A DNA stretch of 64,000 bases, taken from Arcobacteraceae bacterium (GTDB lineage Bacteria; Campylobacterota; Campylobacteria; Campylobacterales; Arcobacteraceae). The DNA is taken from NCBI GenBank assembly GCA_963662945.1, contig OY759974.1, forward strand, positions 352,001-416,000. The letters are read 5' to 3'. A program made the position numbers and the translations under genes. Below are positions 19,032 to 27,292 of this stretch, piece by piece; position 1 is the stretch's first letter, and every line of letters starts with the position of its first letter. Below the pieces are notes generated by a model. It saw only the letters and a program-made list of their open reading frames with translations, was not told where the DNA came from and did not search any database.

Positions 19032-20375
19032 TCAAATATCATCTTTTTTTCCATAAGTTTCACTAGGTTCTGCTACCATTAAAGTGTCATCTATGTTATT
19101 TATATATTGATTATCTGTTACTCTCACTTGTCCATTCATAAGCATTGGAAGAAGCCAATCTCTAAGTTTTGCTAGTTCTTGGTTTTGTTTCTTACTCTGT
19201 ATCATTTGATTAAAAATTGGCTTTATAATTTTTTGAAATTTCAAATAAGATTCTTCTTTAAATACTATTTTTAAATGCTCAATAGAACTACTTGCATGAA
19301 GTAGTATTGAACCTGTGGCATATCTATGAATTGTTTTTATTATTTCATTATCACAAAATATACAATATATTAGACTATTATCAAATTTTCCAGATTTATC
19401 ATATATTTTTCTTAGTCCTCCAGAGATTGCACCTTTTAAGCCAAAACCTAACTTTCCAACTGAACCATCAAAAGTTACAATAACATCCCTTTCATTTACT
19501 ATTTTATAATTTTTATTTGTAGAATCTATATATACTGAACTTTCACTTTGTATGTCCCCAACTCTAAAAAATTTTACACACTTTTCATTCATTTTTAAAT
19601 TTAAATATTCAGAAGCCCCTGGTTCTATACCTTTTTCAAATTCTAAAAATTCTTGCAACTTTTTAACTTCCCAAGCCTCAGGAATCTCTCTTTTTAACTC
19701 TTGATTATAAACCATCTTCCCACCTGATGATTTATAAGGTTTTCCATTCTCATCGGGGAAATCAAATTGTACAAACCAATAATCATAAAGAATTTTTGCC
19801 ATAGCTTCTAGTTCTTTATTGATTTTATTATTTAGTTCTATTTTTGAATCTATATTTTTTAAAATAACAACAATATTATCTTGAATAGTTATATTTGGTA
19901 AATCAAATTCTAATTCTTTTATTACACTTATTGGTGGGAAATTAGGTATTGTTGAATCACCTTTTTTTCCAACTATTAAATTAACTAAGTAAAAATTAAA
20001 ATAATAATAAAAGAAATCATCATTTATCACTTTATTATTTAGTCTAATTCTTAATAATGCTTGATTTATTACACCAGATTCAGCATTTTCCCTTAATTGA
20101 TAAATAGCACCATAATTCACGCCAGAACAAGATACTAAAAAATCTTTCGGTTTCACTTCAAATTTATACATTTTTTTATCATAATACTCTTTTGAAATAT
20201 AATATCTACCAATAGATTCATCTTTTTGTAAAACAACACCTTGTTCATAAACTTTATATGTTGTATGGTCTTTTGGAACAAAAATTTCTTTTTTTAAATC
20301 TCCTCCAAATGGACCTCGTAAAAACCCTTTGTCTTTTAATACAACATCTTTAAATTTAAATTTATTTGTTTCCAA
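19032..20375 (-). CDS. hsdS: Type I restriction-modification specificity subunit
   Basis: Two target recognition domains separated by LEAMAKILYDYWFVQFDFP...YKSSGGKM...IPEAW; ends with LRDWLLPMLMNGQV. Confidence 0.93.
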   Translation of the reverse strand: METNKFKFKDVVLKDKGFLRGPFGGDLKKEIFVPKDHTTYKVYEQGVVLQKDESIGRYYISKEYYDKKMYKFEVKPKDFLVSCSGVNYGAIYQLRENAESGVINQALLRIRLNNKVINDDFFYYYFNFYLVNLIVGKKGDSTIPNFPPISVIKELEFDLPNITIQDNIVVILKNIDSKIELNNKINKELEAMAKILYDYWFVQFDFPDENGKPYKSSGGKMVYNQELKREIPEAWEVKKLQEFLEFEKGIEPGASEYLNLKMNEKCVKFFRVGDIQSESSVYIDSTNKNYKIVNERDVIVTFDGSVGKLGFGLKGAISGGLRKIYDKSGKFDNSLIYCIFCDNEIIKTIHRYATGSILLHASSSIEHLKIVFKEESYLKFQKIIKPIFNQMIQSKKQNQELAKLRDWLLPMLMNGQVRVTDNQYINNIDDTLMVAEPSETYGKKDDI

Positions 20376-21990
20376 GAGTTAACCCCATTAACTGCTTCTT
20401 TATCTCATCTTCCAAGACTTTTGATTCACTAAACATAGCTTTTAAATTATCACTAAATCTTTTCATCTTAGTATCGAACTCATCTTTAGTTATATCCACA
20501 TATTCTATTTTCACATCAAAATATTGCCCTGCAGAAAAAGAGTAATTTTTAGCTTTTATATCATTATAAGAAACAACTACAGAAAAATCATCAACTACTT
20601 TTTTATCATTAAAAGTATCTATGATTTGTTGTTCTTCTTTTTCATCTAAAACTGTTTTTTGGTTTTTACCCTCTTTTACAGTTTTCCCTAAATTTGAAGC
20701 ATCTATTAAAACTACGCCTTCTTTGTTTGTATCATCTATAAATATGATTGATACATTTGTTCCTGTTGTAGCAAAAATATTACTAGGCATTGATACAACA
20801 CCACCTAACATTTTGTTTTCAATTAGATGTTGTCTTATCTTTTTATCTATTCCACTTTGAGCAGTTATAAATCCAGTTGGTACTACAACGGCTGCTTTTC
20901 CACCTTTTTTTAGTGCATAAATAATATGCTGTAAAAACATACTATAAATAGACATAGACTCTTTTTTCTTTGCTGGTATTTTTGGAATACCTGCAAAAAA
21001 CCTATCGTGGTTTTCTTTAGAGTCTAAATCATCTCTATAATCACTAAAATCAGTTTTAAAAGGTGGATTTGATACGATATAATCAAACTTTTGTAAACTA
21101 TCTCCCTCTTTATGATATGGGCTTAAAAGAGTATTTCCTTTAATCACATTTGATATAGAATGAACAAGATTATTTAGAATCAAATTTAGTCGTAAAAGAC
21201 TTGATGACTTTTGAGATATATCTTGTGAGTAGAGACTACATCTATCTTCACCTATAGCGTGGGCGATGTTCATCAGAAGTGTTCCACTTCCTGCACTTGG
21301 GTCATAACAAGTTACGCTTTTAAGCTCTTCATTTTCTTTTACTAAAATAGCCGCCATAATTTTTGCAACCGCATGAGGTGTATAATATTCTGCATACTTT
21401 CCACCACTATCACTGTTATAATCTTTGATTAAGTATTCAAAAATAGTTGCATAGAAATCATACTTTTGATTAAAAATATTTTCAAAACTAAAAGCTACAA
21501 GTTTATTGACAATCGCTTTAAAAAAAGCATCTTTATCATCAATAATATATTTACTCAAAGTATCAAAAAGCTCTATTTTTGCTCCACCTTCTGTTTTTAC
21601 GGAAAAGATATCATTGTTTTCTATAGATATTTGATGTAAAGTATCATCAAAAGTTTGTGCAAAATCAGGACTGTCTTGTATATTAAATAAATGTGTTATA
21701 AGATACTCTGGTTTGAGCTTTGCAGCTTTTGCTCCTATTCGTCTTAGTATTTTATTTCTTTGTTCTTCACTTAAGTTTGTATAGTACTCTTCCCAACTTG
21801 GAGCATTTTTGATATTTTCATCTATCTTTTTTATCTCATAGGCAAATTTATCATTTAAAAATTTGTATAAAAATACTTGAGTGATGATTTTAAACTCATT
21901 TCCATCGTTTCCAAGTCCAAAGTTTGCACATACTGCTTTTAAATTATCTATTAACTTTTTTGTTTCTCTTTCAAACTCTACTATTACCAA
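20362..21990 (-). CDS. hsdM: Type I restriction-modification N6-adenine methyltransferase
   Basis: EYYTP, YDPSAGSGTLL (motif I), VSNPPF (motif IV). Confidence 0.95.
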   Translation of the reverse strand: MVIVEFERETKKLIDNLKAVCANFGLGNDGNEFKIITQVFLYKFLNDKFAYEIKKIDENIKNAPSWEEYYTNLSEEQRNKILRRIGAKAAKLKPEYLITHLFNIQDSPDFAQTFDDTLHQISIENNDIFSVKTEGGAKIELFDTLSKYIIDDKDAFFKAIVNKLVAFSFENIFNQKYDFYATIFEYLIKDYNSDSGGKYAEYYTPHAVAKIMAAILVKENEELKSVTCYDPSAGSGTLLMNIAHAIGEDRCSLYSQDISQKSSSLLRLNLILNNLVHSISNVIKGNTLLSPYHKEGDSLQKFDYIVSNPPFKTDFSDYRDDLDSKENHDRFFAGIPKIPAKKKESMSIYSMFLQHIIYALKKGGKAAVVVPTGFITAQSGIDKKIRQHLIENKMLGGVVSMPSNIFATTGTNVSIIFIDDTNKEGVVLIDASNLGKTVKEGKNQKTVLDEKEEQQIIDTFNDKKVVDDFSVVVSYNDIKAKNYSFSAGQYFDVKIEYVDITKDEFDTKMKRFSDNLKAMFSESKVLEDEIKKQLMGLTLGNK

Positions 21991-24900
21991 TTATATACTC
22001 CATTGTATTCATTTAAATATTCTGTTGCTATCATAGTATTGATGTATCTAAAAGATTCATCATTTAATTTTATTTTATTGTTATCTTCAAACTCTACATC
22101 TACAATAGGCTGTGTTTCTGCTATAAAAAAGTTTTCATGTTTTAATATGGCACTGTTATTTAAAACTTTTTCATCAAGTTGCATTTTTATCTTCTCTAAA
22201 GCACTAAAAATCTTACTTTGTTTATCTGTTATATTGTTTTGTTTGATTCTTTTGTGCATTCTTGCATATTTTCTATCACCTTTGTATTTATCTTTTAAAA
22301 GATCATTTTGTCTATTTAATTCTCGAATTTTATTATCTATTTTTTTAAGTTCCCCAATATTCTCATTCATCTCGTCTTGGGTTATTTCACTTAGATTTTT
22401 ATTTTTAAATAATCTTTCAAGCTCCTCTTTTAAAGTGATATAAAGAGGGTCTTTTTTATCAAAATTATTTTGAAAAGCTTCTCTTGTTTTTCTCAATGTA
22501 TTTTTTAATTTATCCGCTAAAATAAGCTCCTCTTCACTTATCTTTGTAAATTTAAAAATAATATCTTCTAGGGCTAGATTTATGATATTTGTATTTTCAT
22601 CACCCTTTTCTAAAGCTTGTTTTTGATTTAAAAGATTTAAATGATTTGAAGCTTCTCTGTAAAGTAGATTTAACTTTCTAAAATCTAATTTTTCTAGTAA
22701 TTCAAAATGTCCAAATAGCCTTATGAGATTATATAGACTTTTTGCATTTTCAAGTGCTTTTTTTATCTCTTGCATCTTTTTAATATCTTGAATTTTGTTT
22801 ATTTGTTGTGAAAATAGTTCAGCATTTAAAGTGTCATATTCAAATAAAACATCTTTTATATTTTCTATTTCATCCGCTATCTCTTCTTTTGATTTAAAAA
22901 GTGAAGAGTAATATTCCATCTCATCACCAAGTTCATTTTGTAACTCTTCAAAATATGCTTTATTTGTAGCATCAAACTCTTTACTTATATCTGCAAAATC
23001 TACTACATAACCATATTTAAACTTTTTGTATGTACGATTTACTCTTGTAAGGGCTTGTAATAAGCCATGTTGTCTTATGATTCTACCTAGATAGAGCTTT
23101 TTAAGTCGTGGAGCATCAAAGCCCGTAAGAAGCATATTATAAACAAAAAGAAAATCTACCTTTCCATCTTTGAACTCTTCTACCCAATCTTTTCTATCCT
23201 GTTTTGTTCCTATATCGTGTAAAATGATTTTGGCTGTTAAATCTCCTTTTACTTTAATATCATCTGTTCCATAAGTTGTTTGAGGTTGGGCTACAAGTTG
23301 TGCAGAAAAGTTTACATTGTTACTAGCTTCTAGCTTTGTATATTTTGACTGAAATATCTCATACATTTTTTTAGCTTGTGCAGAACTATCACAAATAACC
23401 ATAGCTCCAATAGAATCATCATCAAATCTTACTTTGCTATTTTTAAAATCATTTACAATATAAGCTAACATTGGTTCTACAAATTTTTTATGAGAATAAA
23501 CTTCTTCTGTTTTTAAGTTACCTTGTAAAACTTCTATATCTTCAATTGCTTTTTGTAATTGTAACTTATAGTTTGTCTCTATCTCTTCCCTTATAAGCCT
23601 CAATGTATAACCATCAGCAATAGAAGAATTATAATAATACTTATGAATATAATTACCAAACAATGATTTTGAACTTGTATCTTCTCCTAGCAAAGGAGTT
23701 CCTGTTAGTCCAATTTTTATTGCATTTTTATCAGATGTTTCTAGGTTTGCTAAAAAACTTCCTTTTGGGTTATAACTTCGATGTACTTCATCTAGGAAAT
23801 AGACTCTTTGAATGTTAATATCATAATCTTGTATAGAGATAACATCTGGATCATCTTTAAACCTTTGGATATTTACTACTGTGATTTCATATTCACCTCT
23901 ATCATTATGAATAGCAGTAGTTTTTTTAATATCTTTTGCAAAATCATCACGAGTAGCAATAGTGTGAACTTTTAAACCTCTTGCTGTAAACTCTTTTTTT
24001 GCTTGTGTTAATAAGTCTAATCTATCAACAATAAAATAAAATTTTGGAATAACCCTTTTAGTTTGAAAATAGTTTGTCAGATATCTAACATTGTAAAAAG
24101 CAAGTGCTGTTTTACCACTTCCTTGGGTATGCCAAATGATACCTTTTTTTATACCATCATCAAGTTTACTTTCAATTGCTTTTGTTGCAAATATTTGAGG
24201 ATATCTCATAATATGTTTTTGTACACCATCTTTTGATTTGACATAAGCAATTCCAAACTCTAATAAAAACTTTAATCTATCTTTTGAAAACAACGAAGTA
24301 CTTAATCGGTTTGTTGAAGTTTCAGGTGATTTATTTGTAATAAATTCCGCATTGTTTTTTATCACTTCAAGATTATTATCTTTTAGTATATCATTTTCTG
24401 TTTCATCATCTAAATCTTTTAAAATATTTGCTAAATTTAGTTTTTCTTCTTCTCTAAAATAGTTAAAAATAGGATTTTTTGAAGGTGTAGCATAAAATGC
24501 TCCCTCTATTGGTTCAATAGAATTATCATCATATTCCATATTGTTAGAAAAAACCATAAGTTGTGTTATATTGATAAATTTTCTAAACCTATCATTTGAA
24601 AATCTAACATTTATTCTATCTCTCTCAGCTAATACACCATCTTTATTATTTGGTTTTTTAACCTCTATAAAAACCAATGGCATACCATTGATTAAAAGTA
24701 TAATATCAGGTCTAAACTCTTCATCACTATTTTTATATGGAAGTTCAGTAAGCACATGAAAAGAGTTATTTTCAAAATTTTCAAAATCAAGAAGTTTTAT
24801 ACCTGACTTTTCTATAATCCTCTGATAAAATGCTTTTCCTAAATCTTCATAGTCAAGTAGTAAAGAAACCTCTTCAAAAACTTTATTTGAATCTAAATCA

Positions 24901-25064
24901 TCTGTTTTGTTATTTATTCTCTCAATACTAGATTTAAAAATATCAACAAAAATATTTGTATTTATATCCCAGTTTGAGTCTTTTAAAGATAAATATTTAT
25001 AACCTAATCTCGTAAGGTGTAGTATGGATGGTATTTTTACTCTGCTGTCTTCATTGTATTTCAT
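21984..25064 (-). CDS. hsdR: Type I restriction endonuclease subunit R
   Basis: RPDIILLINGMPLVFIEVK nuclease motif, HTQGSGKT, DEVHR, LTGTP, MLLTGFDAP, QALTRVNR. Confidence 0.95.
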   Translation of the reverse strand: MKYNEDSRVKIPSILHLTRLGYKYLSLKDSNWDINTNIFVDIFKSSIERINNKTDDLDSNKVFEEVSLLLDYEDLGKAFYQRIIEKSGIKLLDFENFENNSFHVLTELPYKNSDEEFRPDIILLINGMPLVFIEVKKPNNKDGVLAERDRINVRFSNDRFRKFINITQLMVFSNNMEYDDNSIEPIEGAFYATPSKNPIFNYFREEEKLNLANILKDLDDETENDILKDNNLEVIKNNAEFITNKSPETSTNRLSTSLFSKDRLKFLLEFGIAYVKSKDGVQKHIMRYPQIFATKAIESKLDDGIKKGIIWHTQGSGKTALAFYNVRYLTNYFQTKRVIPKFYFIVDRLDLLTQAKKEFTARGLKVHTIATRDDFAKDIKKTTAIHNDRGEYEITVVNIQRFKDDPDVISIQDYDINIQRVYFLDEVHRSYNPKGSFLANLETSDKNAIKIGLTGTPLLGEDTSSKSLFGNYIHKYYYNSSIADGYTLRLIREEIETNYKLQLQKAIEDIEVLQGNLKTEEVYSHKKFVEPMLAYIVNDFKNSKVRFDDDSIGAMVICDSSAQAKKMYEIFQSKYTKLEASNNVNFSAQLVAQPQTTYGTDDIKVKGDLTAKIILHDIGTKQDRKDWVEEFKDGKVDFLFVYNMLLTGFDAPRLKKLYLGRIIRQHGLLQALTRVNRTYKKFKYGYVVDFADISKEFDATNKAYFEELQNELGDEMEYYSSLFKSKEEIADEIENIKDVLFEYDTLNAELFSQQINKIQDIKKMQEIKKALENAKSLYNLIRLFGHFELLEKLDFRKLNLLYREASNHLNLLNQKQALEKGDENTNIINLALEDIIFKFTKISEEELILADKLKNTLRKTREAFQNNFDKKDPLYITLKEELERLFKNKNLSEITQDEMNENIGELKKIDNKIRELNRQNDLLKDKYKGDRKYARMHKRIKQNNITDKQSKIFSALEKIKMQLDEKVLNNSAILKHENFFIAETQPIVDVEFEDNNKIKLNDESFRYINTMIATEYLNEYNGVYNW

Positions 25065-25123
25065 TAATTATCCAAATTGTTTACATTATTAAAACATTTA
25101 TTTTACAACAACTATCCAACTAT

Positions 25124-25152
25124 TTGACTTAAAAATCATTATCTGCTATAAT
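25124..25152 (+). promoter_or_regulatory. Near-consensus sigma70 promoter pointing into a non-coding region
   Basis: TTGACT (25124-25129), 17-nt spacer, extended -10 TGcTATAAT (25144-25152). Confidence 0.8.
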
Positions 25153-25158
25153 ACACTT

Positions 25159-25293
25159 ACAATTCGCCTACGGGCACACCCACTTTTTTAAGTGGGGTCA
25201 ATAAATTACTTCATTTAGGTGAAGCTACCGCTAAAAAGATTTTCTTTTTAGGTCAGGCTAAATTAAAGGGAACTATTAAAGTTCCCTTTTTTT
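25159..25293 (+). ncRNA. Candidate ~135-nt multi-hairpin small RNA convergent on the PemK/MazF-like gene
   Basis: Promoter upstream; four consecutive hairpins including GCC-UACG-GGC; terminator with U7; 39 G+C in 25161-25260 versus 17 of 80 in 25081-25160; no ATG or SD-led ORF. Confidence 0.7.
25265..25293 (+). terminator. Intrinsic terminator, possibly bidirectional
   Basis: AAAGGGAACT-ATTAA-AGTTCCCTTT with T7 at 25287-25293; abuts the stop codon of the convergent toxin gene. Confidence 0.85.
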
Positions 25294-25816
25294 ATATCCC
25301 TAAATATTTTTTAATAAACTCTTTTATTTTCTGAATATCTTCTACTTTAAGTTCAGGATATATCAAACTTTCCAATCTTTTTGTATCGATTGTTTTGATT
25401 TCATTACATATTACTAAGGAATCTTTTTCCAACCCTAAATACTTTAGCCTTTTTTGTTTATCAAAAAAACTTTTAGAAACTTCAGATTTTAATTCATAAT
25501 GAAAATGTTTTATTTTTGTCTTCTCTTTTTTAGAAGTAAGCGGCATCACTATAACTTTTTTATTGTAAGTAGCATGATTAAAATTATTGCTTGATATTAC
25601 GATACAAGGTCTTATTGTAGTCAGTTTTTCTTTAGAAAAGTGGCAACTAGTCTCACTACCAATATTTTCTCCGACTTCAAACCACCACAAACTCCAAGGC
25701 TGTATTCTAAACTTAACACTTCCATCTTTTTTATGATTTATATTTATTTTTCCATTAATGTGTTTTTTCTTATCGTTCCAGCTGTCCAGTCTATTATTTT
25801 TATCATCATACATCAC
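25292..25816 (-). CDS. PemK/MazF-fold endoribonuclease toxin-like protein, no adjacent protein antitoxin
   Basis: LWWFEVGENIGSE, RPCIVISSNNFN, VIVMPLTS, SLVICNEIKTIDTKRL follow the PemK/MazF pattern; 4-nt overlap with the radC stop. Confidence 0.82.
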   Translation of the reverse strand: MMYDDKNNRLDSWNDKKKHINGKININHKKDGSVKFRIQPWSLWWFEVGENIGSETSCHFSKEKLTTIRPCIVISSNNFNHATYNKKVIVMPLTSKKEKTKIKHFHYELKSEVSKSFFDKQKRLKYLGLEKDSLVICNEIKTIDTKRLESLIYPELKVEDIQKIKEFIKKYLGI

Positions 25817-26472
25817 AACATCTCCCTATCACGAAAACTCAAAAAACCTTCCCTCGTAAATATCACATGATCTAGTAGTTCTATTCCTAAAATTTTTCCA
25901 GACTCTTGAAGTCTTTTTGTTACTTGCATATCTTCATGACTAGCTTCCAAAATGCCACTTGGATGATTGTGTGCTACTATGATACTCGCACATCTATTCT
26001 CAACAGCAGGGGCGAATACTTCTCTTGGATGTACTAAGCTTTGGTTGAGTGTACCTATGGTTATCACTCTTGTTTCACACAGATGATTCGCACCATCAAG
26101 ATACAAACACAAGAAATACTCTTGTCTTTTATCTTTGTAGCTTTTTAGCTCCTCATATACATCACTTGCATTTGTGATTTTTTTATTTTGTTTGATTAAG
26201 TATCTGCGAGAAAGTTCAAGGGCTGAGATGATTTGACTCGCTTTTGCAACTCCTAATCCATGTATAGTAAGAAGTTTTTCAAGATTTAAAGTATCAAAAT
26301 CATCTTCAAAGAGTTTGACTATCTCTCGTGAAAGTGCAAATACATCTTTCCCTTTGATACCACTTCCTAAAAGTATAGCTACTAGTTCATAATCTTTTAG
26401 AACTTTGACACCTTTTTGGAGTAGCTTTTCTCTTGGTTTATCGAAATTGTTTAGTTCTGTTATAGTTTTCAT
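25813..26472 (-). CDS. radC: RadC/UPF0758 JAB-domain protein (full length)
   Basis: KPREKLL, ELVAILLGSG, GLGVAKA, GTLNQSLVHPREVF, AHNHPSG, LLDHVI. Confidence 0.93.
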   Translation of the reverse strand: MKTITELNNFDKPREKLLQKGVKVLKDYELVAILLGSGIKGKDVFALSREIVKLFEDDFDTLNLEKLLTIHGLGVAKASQIISALELSRRYLIKQNKKITNASDVYEELKSYKDKRQEYFLCLYLDGANHLCETRVITIGTLNQSLVHPREVFAPAVENRCASIIVAHNHPSGILEASHEDMQVTKRLQESGKILGIELLDHVIFTREGFLSFRDREML

Positions 26473-26530
26473 ATCTAACTATAACTAAATATAAAACAGT
26501 GTTTTAAAAATATTGCAGTTTGTTAAGTTT

Positions 26531-27292
26531 TTATTTTAGTTGAAAAAAGCTACTTCCACTTCCACTAAAAAAGTTTTTCCCATTTTCATAGATTTTTAGT
26601 TCTGGATAGACGCTTAATGCTGGTGCATATAAATCATTTGCTTCTTCTATAGATAAAGTTTCTAAAATATCTTTGCTTTTCATTGAAAGTAATTTTTGAG
26701 CCTCTTCTTTAGAAATCTCTTTATAAAACTTATCTCGAAATTTTGTAAAGATAGCACCTGTATTACACTCTATTTTAGGAGTAAAAGTTTGTATCTCCAA
26801 AACCTCTTCATCAAACTTTTCTACAATCTCTCCAATCCCTGTTACATTTGCACTATCATACTCATAGATGAAAAAAGGAACATCCGCACCAATCTTTGCT
26901 CCAATCTTAGCTAACTCATCACGACTAAGTTTCAAATCTGCCAGTATATTTACCATCAACATAAAAGTAGCACAGTTACTACTTCCACCACCTAGTCCTG
27001 CAAATTCTGGAATATTCTTCTCTACAACTACTTTATAGTTCTTGAATATTTCTTCTAAATTCTTAAACATACTGTATAGTTCTAAGTATGCTTTATAAAT
27101 AGTGTTTTTTTGGGTTTCACAACCAAAATCACCCTCTAAAGTAAACTCTTCAAACTCACCTTGTTCAAATCTTATTACATCATAAAGAGTATGTACTCGA
27201 ACAAATCGTGATACTATTTCGTGATAATTGTCTCGTTTACCAGCTATTTTTAAAAAGATATTTACTTTAGCATAAGATTTTTTTTCTATCAT
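26531..27292 (-). CDS. ispE: 4-diphosphocytidyl-2-C-methyl-D-erythritol kinase
   Basis: AKVNIFLKI, KNIPEFAGLGGGSSN, GADVPFF, SGSGSS. Confidence 0.93.
   Translation of the reverse strand: MIEKKSYAKVNIFLKIAGKRDNYHEIVSRFVRVHTLYDVIRFEQGEFEEFTLEGDFGCETQKNTIYKAYLELYSMFKNLEEIFKNYKVVVEKNIPEFAGLGGGSSNCATFMLMVNILADLKLSRDELAKIGAKIGADVPFFIYEYDSANVTGIGEIVEKFDEEVLEIQTFTPKIECNTGAIFTKFRDKFYKEISKEEAQKLLSMKSKDILETLSIEEANDLYAPALSVYPELKIYENGKNFFSGSGSSFFQLK

Follow-up and report, generated by a model that had tools for sequence, protein, structure and literature searches.

A convergent structured RNA as candidate antitoxin of a MazF-fold toxin subfamily in Campylobacterota and Patescibacteria

A toxin gene of the MazF/PemK fold and a facing gene for a structured RNA are the subject of this report; they lie in a 64,000-nt stretch of an Arcobacteraceae genome (contig OY759974.1, positions 352,001 to 416,000), called the window below and the source of all unlabelled coordinates. 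The toxin open reading frame (ORF) is on the minus strand, and the RNA gene is on the plus strand and runs up to the toxin stop codon. We propose, with a probability of about 0.7, that the RNA is the antitoxin of the MazF-fold toxin and that the two make up a two-part module. The toxin belongs to a subfamily marked by an N-terminal DxWNxxKK motif, and the core of the RNA co-occurs with toxins of this subfamily strictly and strand-specifically across two phyla. An RNA-antitoxin role had already been suggested in a preliminary description of the locus, and it is still the best reading after the analysis reported here. The elements of the module are as follows.

25124..25152, plus strand: promoter of the sigma-70 type, TTGACT-17-TATAAT with an extended -10 TG, scoring 11/12
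25159..25203, plus strand: RNA core with leader ACAAUUC, hairpin 1 (25166-25175), ACA linker, hairpin 2 (25179-25196) and 3' GUCAAUA, matched by the covariance model R1 at 70.1 bits
25209..25251, plus strand: hairpins 3 (25209-25224) and 4 (25231-25251), clade-specific, from the minimum free energy (MFE) fold
25265..25293, plus strand: intrinsic terminator with stem 25265-25289 and U7 tail 25287-25293, the sole terminator-like site in 24700-26700
25292..25816, minus strand: toxin gene of the MazF/PemK fold and DxWNxxKK subfamily, a divergent 174-amino-acid form with insertions, assigned by PF02452 and Foldseek

The toxin and the facing RNA gene

The 174-amino-acid protein matched PF02452 (PemK_toxin; E 6.2e-14, 52.6 bits for a cut-off of 23.1) and no other Pfam family. 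An AlphaFold2 model built on a 40-sequence alignment (mean predicted local distance difference test score, pLDDT, 70.2) was compared with the PDB by Foldseek, and the best matches were MazF of S. aureus, B. subtilis and M. tuberculosis, with template modelling (TM) scores of 0.74-0.81 normalised to the target. At least 96 PDB matches reached E<=0.001, and the matches listed were all MazF-type toxins, one of them named MoxT. The window toxin is homologous to the 131-141-amino-acid members of the subfamily at 25-30% identity and has in common with them the DxWNxxKK motif, an additional N-terminal helix that is absent from canonical MazF and marks a distinct MazF subfamily. In alignments of 23 and 40 sequences, R-P was invariant and P-L-T-(S/T) nearly invariant. 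The toxin-family profile matched B. subtilis MazF (4mdx) at E 3.1e-10, and R69-P70 and P92-L-T of the window toxin correspond to the R-P and T positions aligned with that protein, whose catalytic residues we take to be those numbered R25 and T48. On these alignments, the toxin is predicted to keep the catalytic Arg and Thr positions of MazF. PADLOC and NCBIfam scans of the toxin returned nothing informative, and no match to the ToxN/AbiQ, CptN or TenpN families.

The toxin start codon overlaps the stop codon of the upstream gene radC by 4 nt, and the 227-nt gap on the other side (25065-25291) contains no ORF of 40 or more amino acids. The preliminary description had recognised a PemK/MazF protein with this radC overlap and without an antitoxin ORF, and had placed in the gap an opposite-strand transcription unit with a promoter, a terminator and a U-tract running over the toxin stop codon; all of these elements were found where it had put them. 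The promoter at 25124-25152 was the top scorer among eight promoter-like sites in 24700-26700, a number that does not exceed the shuffle mean of 9.9. At the other end of the unit, the T7 run (25287-25293) has 2 nt in common with the toxin stop codon (25292-25294). The 137-nt RNA spanning 25159-25295 folds at -43.4 kcal/mol (z -6.10), and none of 200 shuffles was as good; hairpin 3 is the weakest element, being drawn slightly differently in the MFE structure and lost in the centroid. The locus is thus predicted to encode an RNA of about 135 nt that has its own strong promoter and is aimed at the toxin gene.

A scan of 24800-25600 against Rfam (Rfam 15) at E<=10 gave no relevant match, which settles a check that the preliminary description had proposed, and scans of ten related loci at E<=1 found nothing at the position of the RNA. 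No tRNA or tmRNA was detected in the 64-kb window. The RNA had been called non-repetitive, and a tandem-repeat scan of 25065-25300 indeed found no repeat.

Co-occurrence and covariation of the RNA core

A DNA search showed that the segment 25147-25203, from the -10 box through the leader, hairpin 1 and the ACA linker to hairpin 2, recurs in other species of the genus, and every such copy has its own TTGAC-17-TATAAT promoter and is convergent with an ORF of 131-141 amino acids. Searches with a protein profile of the toxin yielded 22 genome loci (Arcobacteraceae, Sulfurovum, Sulfurimonas, C. concisus and many Patescibacteria), 80 metagenome loci retained from 267 relatives and 3 loci on viral contigs. 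The covariance model R1, trained on 12 Campylobacterota RNAs, had 76 matches at E<=1 when run on 98 sources, and a further 32 sources added 7. Among the 105 loci L020-L124, which had been fetched by the toxin alone, it gave 61 matches in 60 loci at E<=0.01, and at the same threshold it matched 59 of the 100 loci having a stop codon and at least 60 nt downstream. Without exception these matches lay on the strand opposite to the toxin, and their 3' ends fell, at the median, 15 nt within the toxin coding sequence (CDS). The outliers in position were L020, which has a long RNA of the window type, L085, L090, L091 and L098, where the frame is broken or the ORF call uncertain, and the second module in L098.

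R1 had a single match, 25159-25203, both in the window and in the whole source genome. Across 28 whole genomes of the genus it had 12 matches, each of them (12/12) convergent with and adjoining a toxin-family match; about seven of the 12 are, or duplicate, training sequences of R1 (eight with the window's own), and those in G043, G024, G019 and contig 301 of G004 are independent of training. Canonical-type MazF/PemK loci of the same genus gave no R1 match (0/9), and the eight of these nine that were inspected by eye (108-121 amino acids) had neither a convergent promoter nor hairpins.

The preliminary description had named covarying hairpins near toxin homologues as the feature to look for, and the RNA core was found both to co-occur with the toxin and to covary. 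In the core alignment, which was fitted to the model and hence biased towards the structure, 99.8% of cells were paired, 8 of 9 pairs were double-changed and 105 cells were compensatory. Pairing was as high in none of 500 shuffles, and it fell to 35-52% when the partner was slid by 1-3 columns. Compensatory change can also be read in the raw sequence, in which GCC-UACG-GGC of the window corresponds to UCC-UUCG-GGA in L020, a locus of 97% identity.

The promoter, the folding propensity and the leader were then counted by position. Among unique loci for which 120 nt or more of downstream sequence was available, a promoter scoring at least 10/12 was present within 160 nt on the antisense strand in 70/95 loci, compared with 4/95 on the sense strand and 8/72 in upstream control regions (either strand); at a score of at least 11/12 the respective counts were 35, 0 and 1. 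The 55 nt following the promoter had a median z of -2.40 (n=72), against 0.00 for the antisense of the CDS middle. The leader AYAA(A/U)U occurred 3-12 nt past the -10 box in 40/53 Campylobacterota and 18/40 Patescibacteria loci, for a background of about 5%. Its offset has a mode of 6 nt and is exactly 6 nt in 33 of the 53 Campylobacterota loci, in agreement with the transcription start near 25159 given in the preliminary description. Each position of AYAAUU is 87-93% conserved among 68 distinct Campylobacterota RNAs, and the loops of hairpin 1 are the stable tetraloops UUCG, GUAA or UACG.

Loci without an R1 match mostly keep the same architecture of promoter and hairpins in a different sequence. 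This is the case in Patescibacteria, where an antisense promoter of at least 10/12 was found in 28/37 loci inspected and where about 33 of 37 loci, judged by eye, show TTGAC-17-TAnnnT, about 6 nt, ACAAAU, a hairpin such as GGC-UUCG-GCC, a linker (UCG, CGA or CCGAGAUU) and a C-rich/G-rich hairpin, often with a U-run or a separate terminator at the toxin stop. ACAAAU begins at the same offset as the Campylobacterota leader, and many Patescibacteria have a conserved GAGAUU or GAU linker directly 5' of hairpin 2, a hairpin that varies in length in these RNAs and was not alignable by MAFFT. Applied to Patescibacteria loci with its filters off, R1 produced seven weak matches at E<=10, none of them below E 0.2 and some off the RNA site. 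We therefore relate the RNAs of the two phyla to one another by their position, promoter and leader motif and by the way their hairpins parse, not by a common model. We dismissed the possibility of a micro-ORF within the RNA, since the AUG in ACAAAUGG that some Patescibacteria RNAs have is lacking in Campylobacterota and the base changes in the stems compensate one another as RNA pairs.

The two genes also differ in how they decay. The RNA gene is intact beside a broken toxin in G008/L007 (L016), G007/L015, G130/L171, L090 and L091, and the reverse case, a toxin whose RNA is missing, has one possible example, L170. Retention of the RNA where the toxin decays fits the prediction for a toxin and its antitoxin.

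Mode of action and known systems

Passages of PMC10470494, PMC7826846 and bioRxiv 10.1101/2020.01.02.893479 cite CjrA as the antisense RNA antitoxin of a type I system on plasmid pVir of Campylobacter jejuni 81-176; the toxin paired with it is named CjpT, and the source cited is Shen et al. (2016, Mol Microbiol 101:909). The only toxin of a toxin-antitoxin (TA) system annotated on pVir is the PemK/MazF gene WP_011117588.1 (NC_008770.1, 30634-31038, 134 amino acids). Its product carries the motif FDEWNEVKK, matches the family profile with an hhalign probability of 99.9 (E 1.7e-31) and is 31% identical to the window toxin in blastp (E 2e-9), and we assign it on sequence to the DxWNxxKK subfamily. 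Directly downstream, a promoter TTGATT-17-TATAAT faces the gene and would drive an RNA of about 95 nt (z -2.55) that folds into three hairpins; the last of these, CCCCG...CGGGG, is followed by AUAAUC and abuts the toxin stop codon. We infer that CjpT is this pVir gene; if so, the window would hold a distant chromosomal member of an experimentally shown kind of toxin and RNA antitoxin.

The window and pVir loci are alike in toxin subfamily, in the strong convergent promoter and in a hairpin RNA ending at the stop codon. They differ in that the pVir RNA has three hairpins and no AYAAUU leader, whereas that of the window forms five stems and ends in a terminator of its own; likewise, the pVir toxin has 134 amino acids and is plasmid-borne, whereas the window toxin is a chromosomal protein of 174 amino acids with insertions, and its RNA barely overlaps the CDS. 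The statement in the preliminary description that the locus fits neither type III nor classical type I systems is not supported, the toxin being of one subfamily with the pVir gene and CjrA/CjpT being published, as far as those passages go, as type I.

We envisage the following course of events. The toxin would probably be made through read-through and translational coupling from the upstream gene, here radC. The most likely route of silencing is pairing of the RNA with the 3' end or the read-through part of the toxin transcript, which would bring about cleavage or decay of the duplex and be joined by convergent-transcription interference, a type I-like action as published for CjrA. The geometry speaks for antisense action: the RNA gene was convergent and abutted the stop codon in every locus examined, in both phyla, and the RNA overlaps the CDS in most members. 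Downstream of the toxin in the window, the terminator search showed none on the minus strand, and transcription of the toxin gene therefore probably continues into the RNA gene. With its conserved single-stranded leader and fixed two-hairpin shape, the RNA may in addition be recognised by a protein, possibly the toxin. That antisense pairing is at least part of the mechanism we hold somewhat less firmly than the antitoxin role as such, and it is not exclusive of direct binding.

Several points weigh against an antisense antitoxin related to CjrA. The overlap of RNA and CDS in the window amounts to just 2 nt, so antisense action requires a toxin transcript that continues past the shared terminator. 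A purely antisense RNA would not require the conserved single-stranded AYAAUU leader or UNCG/GNRA tetraloops on hairpin 1. The identity of CjpT with the pVir gene is our own deduction; R1 found nothing meaningful in the pVir RNA, and the homology to CjrA is one of position and architecture only. Finally, L170, whose toxin is 43% identical to that of the window, has no recognisable RNA.

Some of these features are what a type III-like system would show, in which the RNA binds the toxin directly, its leader or linker lying in the RNA groove of MazF as a pseudo-substrate or a processed product. The convergent position would then be incidental or a second layer of control, and such binding is compatible with the antisense action favoured above. 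We regard it as a possible, if lesser, alternative. It would account for conserved unpaired bases beyond coding constraint (the leader and, in Patescibacteria, the linker), for stable tetraloops, and not kissing loops, in hairpin 1, for the retention of the core outside the CDS in the window, L020, L169 and L171, and for the tandem duplication of the unit in L035. Direct binding also has a precedent in RCd22 and AbiF, as the relevant passages of PMC12373285 report. On the other hand, a purely trans-acting binder has no need of the invariant convergent geometry abutting the toxin 3' end, the RNA gene of one C-terminally extended subfamily lies inside the toxin CDS so that a duplex is unavoidable there, and the published relative is classed as type I in the passages of PMC10470494 and PMC7826846 that mention it.

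A combination of both actions would be a hybrid of types I and III: a single ancient RNA family of Campylobacterota and Patescibacteria, with leader, tetraloop hairpin, linker and C-rich/G-rich hairpin, that binds its MazF subfamily sequence-specifically and acts as an antisense RNA as well. It would be the first RNA antitoxin for a bona fide MazF toxin, with the DxWNxxKK helix as an adaptation to RNA binding. We offer this combination as a speculative and rather doubtful extension; if it were true, the label 'type I' of CjrA/CjpT would be incomplete.

The comparison with other known systems runs along the same lines. With type II MazEF/PemIK the window toxin has in common the fold and the catalytic Arg/Thr positions; it differs in having no gene of the MazE/PemI type beside it and in its extra N-terminal helix, and the canonical MazF genes of the genus differ in turn by being without the RNA. 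Convergent 3'-end layouts are classical among Gram-positive type I systems (par RNAI/RNAII-Fst, TxpA/RatA, BsrG/SR4), in which the antitoxin RNA and the toxin mRNA overlap at their 3' ends, in some cases because one bidirectional terminator serves both, and the toxins are small hydrophobic peptides. The present family differs from these in its MazF-fold protein of 131-174 amino acids and in an RNA with a structured core and an unpaired leader. Type III systems (ToxIN/CptIN/TenpIN) resemble the arrangement proposed for the window in that a Kid/MazF-like endoribonuclease is restrained by an RNA; unlike theirs, the window toxin falls in PF02452 with structural matches to MazF and not ToxN, and its RNA is non-array, downstream and convergent. 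In Clostridioides difficile, according to the passages concerned of PMC12373285, RCd22 (abiF RNA motif) neutralises AbiF by direct binding and also lowers abiF expression. As described there, this is likewise a structured non-array RNA beside a toxic protein and sets a precedent for type III-like action, with a toxin of an unrelated family (Abi_2).

The genes of the subfamily are currently annotated as 'type II toxin-antitoxin system PemK/MazF family toxin'. On our reading this label is wrong, the partner being an unannotated RNA that is missing from Rfam and not a protein antitoxin, and the pairing of toxin and RNA appears to be family-wide. A literature search, whose scope excluded the supplements of motif surveys and the 2016 paper, found no description of a MazF/PemK toxin with a convergent RNA, and the main texts of Weinberg 2017 and Fremin 2021 do not mention MazF or PemK, although their supplements could list such a motif. 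In the searchable literature and Rfam, three things thus appear to be undescribed: a bona fide MazF toxin mislabelled as type II, the structured RNA family, and the abundance of the system in Patescibacteria. Recognition of the pairing would allow many annotations to be corrected and would provide a covariance model for the antitoxin. It would also offer a tractable case of whether an RNA can control a MazF-fold ribonuclease (RNase) by pairing, by binding or by both.

Neighbouring genes, clades and spread

The same-strand ORFs upstream of the toxin were surveyed at 82 loci and belong to no common family; 61 were singletons, and the remainder formed small clusters, namely a 244-amino-acid unknown family (7), hsdM (5), radC (3), a 43-amino-acid ORF (3) and six pairs. 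Among the neighbours that could be recognised are rpoC, ilvD, an integrase and restriction-modification (RM) methylases. The DxWNxxKK subfamily has no conserved protein antitoxin. In the window, the minus-strand gene order is radC, the toxin, the 227-nt gap and hsdR-hsdM-hsdS, with the following neighbours of the module.

25813..26472, minus strand: radC, with profile matches to RadC and UPF0758_N; upstream neighbour, outside the module proper
21984-25064, minus strand: hsdR
20362-21990, minus strand: hsdM
19032-20375, minus strand: hsdS

Past radC come ispE (a GHMP-kinase family match) and then truB and pcrA/uvrD, the last two named from their translations, and smpB and a prephenate dehydrogenase gene flank the far side of the type I RM operon. 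The preliminary description had spoken of a defence island, which overstates the case: the sole defence neighbour of the toxin locus is this one type I RM operon, amid the housekeeping genes smpB and radC-ispE-truB.

The gene radC is directly upstream of the toxin in L005, L020, L057, L098 and L171 as well, L005 and L171 being cases found outside the 82-locus survey, and most related loci have other neighbours. The module lies downstream of radC in the window, L005, L020, L057 and L171. In L098 (198-1800) a toxin-RNA module stands on either side of radC, and in L169 the module is upstream of radC, with radC just past the RNA gene. These recurrences, the doubly flanked radC of L098 among them, are what could be said for neutralisation of the toxin by a protein, RadC or an unlinked factor, with another role for the RNA, an explanation to which we give next to no credence. 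RadC is the upstream neighbour in just 3 of the 82 surveyed loci, the place being taken elsewhere by hsdM, rpoC, ilvD, relaxase, terminase and other genes, and the radC of the window is the housekeeping two-domain form, beside ispE-truB-pcrA. With radC missing from most related loci, we rejected its product as the antitoxin, and the recurrence looks like that of an insertion hot spot.

The RNA gene stands between the same-strand genes toxin and hsdR, and it could serve not as an antitoxin but as a regulator or insulator of its neighbours, for instance by keeping transcription of radC and the toxin from running on into hsdR or by controlling hsdR. Its promoter is back-to-back with a conserved block upstream of hsdR: 25067-25131, reaching from the 5' side of hsdR to the -35 box of the RNA, is 85-89% identical to L004, L006 and L008, from three other genomes of the genus, and the similarity stops short of the RNA core. 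The block is probably the promoter or leader of hsdR. We consider a regulator or insulator very unlikely, as the RNA core accompanies the toxin where there are no RM genes (L002, L003, L010, plasmids and prophages) and was never found without the toxin in the 28 whole genomes.

The 174-amino-acid form of the toxin has three more relatives, L169, L170 and L171, among 184 genomes of the family. L169 (69% identity) and L171 (toxin truncated at 57 amino acids) have the same five-stem RNA, with hairpins 3 and 4 of different sequence. Judged by eye, L020, L169 and L171 carry hairpins at the positions of window hairpins 3-4 with differing stem sequences; an alignment of the four long RNAs by MAFFT/RNAalifold put hairpins 3 and 4 out of register and did not resolve them. 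The terminator of the window type is conserved in L020, L169 and L171, and in these three and the window the two-hairpin core is retained about 95 nt outside the CDS. All four hairpins drawn in the preliminary description lie at the positions it gave, of which just hairpins 1 and 2 are family-wide and hairpin 3 is absent from the centroid; hairpins 3 and 4 and the separate terminator are specific to the small 174-amino-acid clade.

The opposite relation of RNA and CDS is seen in the C-terminally extended subfamily (L144, L145 and L156-L158), in which the RNA gene lies wholly within the toxin CDS. The extension is a basic tail ending ...NVK, whose codons are the complement of the RNA gene together with its promoter. 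The ORFs of L156 and L157 also include, in one frame with the toxin, a cytidylyltransferase-like (NeuA-type) domain and are 394-396 amino acids long.

With the toxin profile, 470 clusters were found at E<=1e-30 in a 50%-identity library. The family is patchy, being present in 18 of 28 genomes of the genus, and in Patescibacteria it occurs in 50 of 401 sampled genomes (E<=1e-25), frequently in multiple copies. The Patescibacteria genome G201 (about 0.6 Mb; the genome of L034, with L172, L176 and L179) has eight toxin-family matches at E<=1e-10, and its loci carry more than one type of RNA linker. A tblastn search with a typical family member gave hits on 15 plasmids, of which 7 are from Campylobacter (pVir being one of them), 6 from Helicobacter and 2 from Nitratiruptor, and in 7 phage or prophage records of Campylobacter.

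This distribution bears on whether the protein is a growth-arresting toxin at all. It might be a specialised RNase, acting for instance in RNA processing, with the RNA as its substrate or as a routine antisense regulator; the frequent translational coupling of the gene to housekeeping genes and the presence of up to eight copies in a 0.6-Mb Patescibacteria genome would suit such a role. We judge it unlikely in view of the patchy occurrence just described, the carriage on plasmids and prophages, and the toxin pseudogenes that retain their RNA, which together with multi-copy expansion are typical of TA modules; moreover, passages of PMC10470494 and PMC7826846 refer to the pVir relative as a TA system carried by a plasmid.

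Single loci show further variation. In L035 (406-514, Saccharibacteria) the RNA unit is tandemly duplicated, in 45-nt copies that are 91% identical and 64 nt apart, an arrangement reminiscent of type III arrays; it was found by a repeat search and not reported by TRF. The toxin frame of L025 (1562-2776, Sulfurovum) is open for 404 codons to the contig end, beyond the toxin domain, and an R1 match (E 0.0015) lies inside this open frame, which may reflect loss of the stop codon or an assembly issue. In Campylobacter phage CJIE4-3 (L213, 1186-1620) a member annotated 'toxin MazF' lies between the terminase large subunit and portal genes, as in CJIE4-type prophages, and is faced by a convergent promoter and an RNA that ends CCCCGC...GCGGGG at the toxin stop codon.

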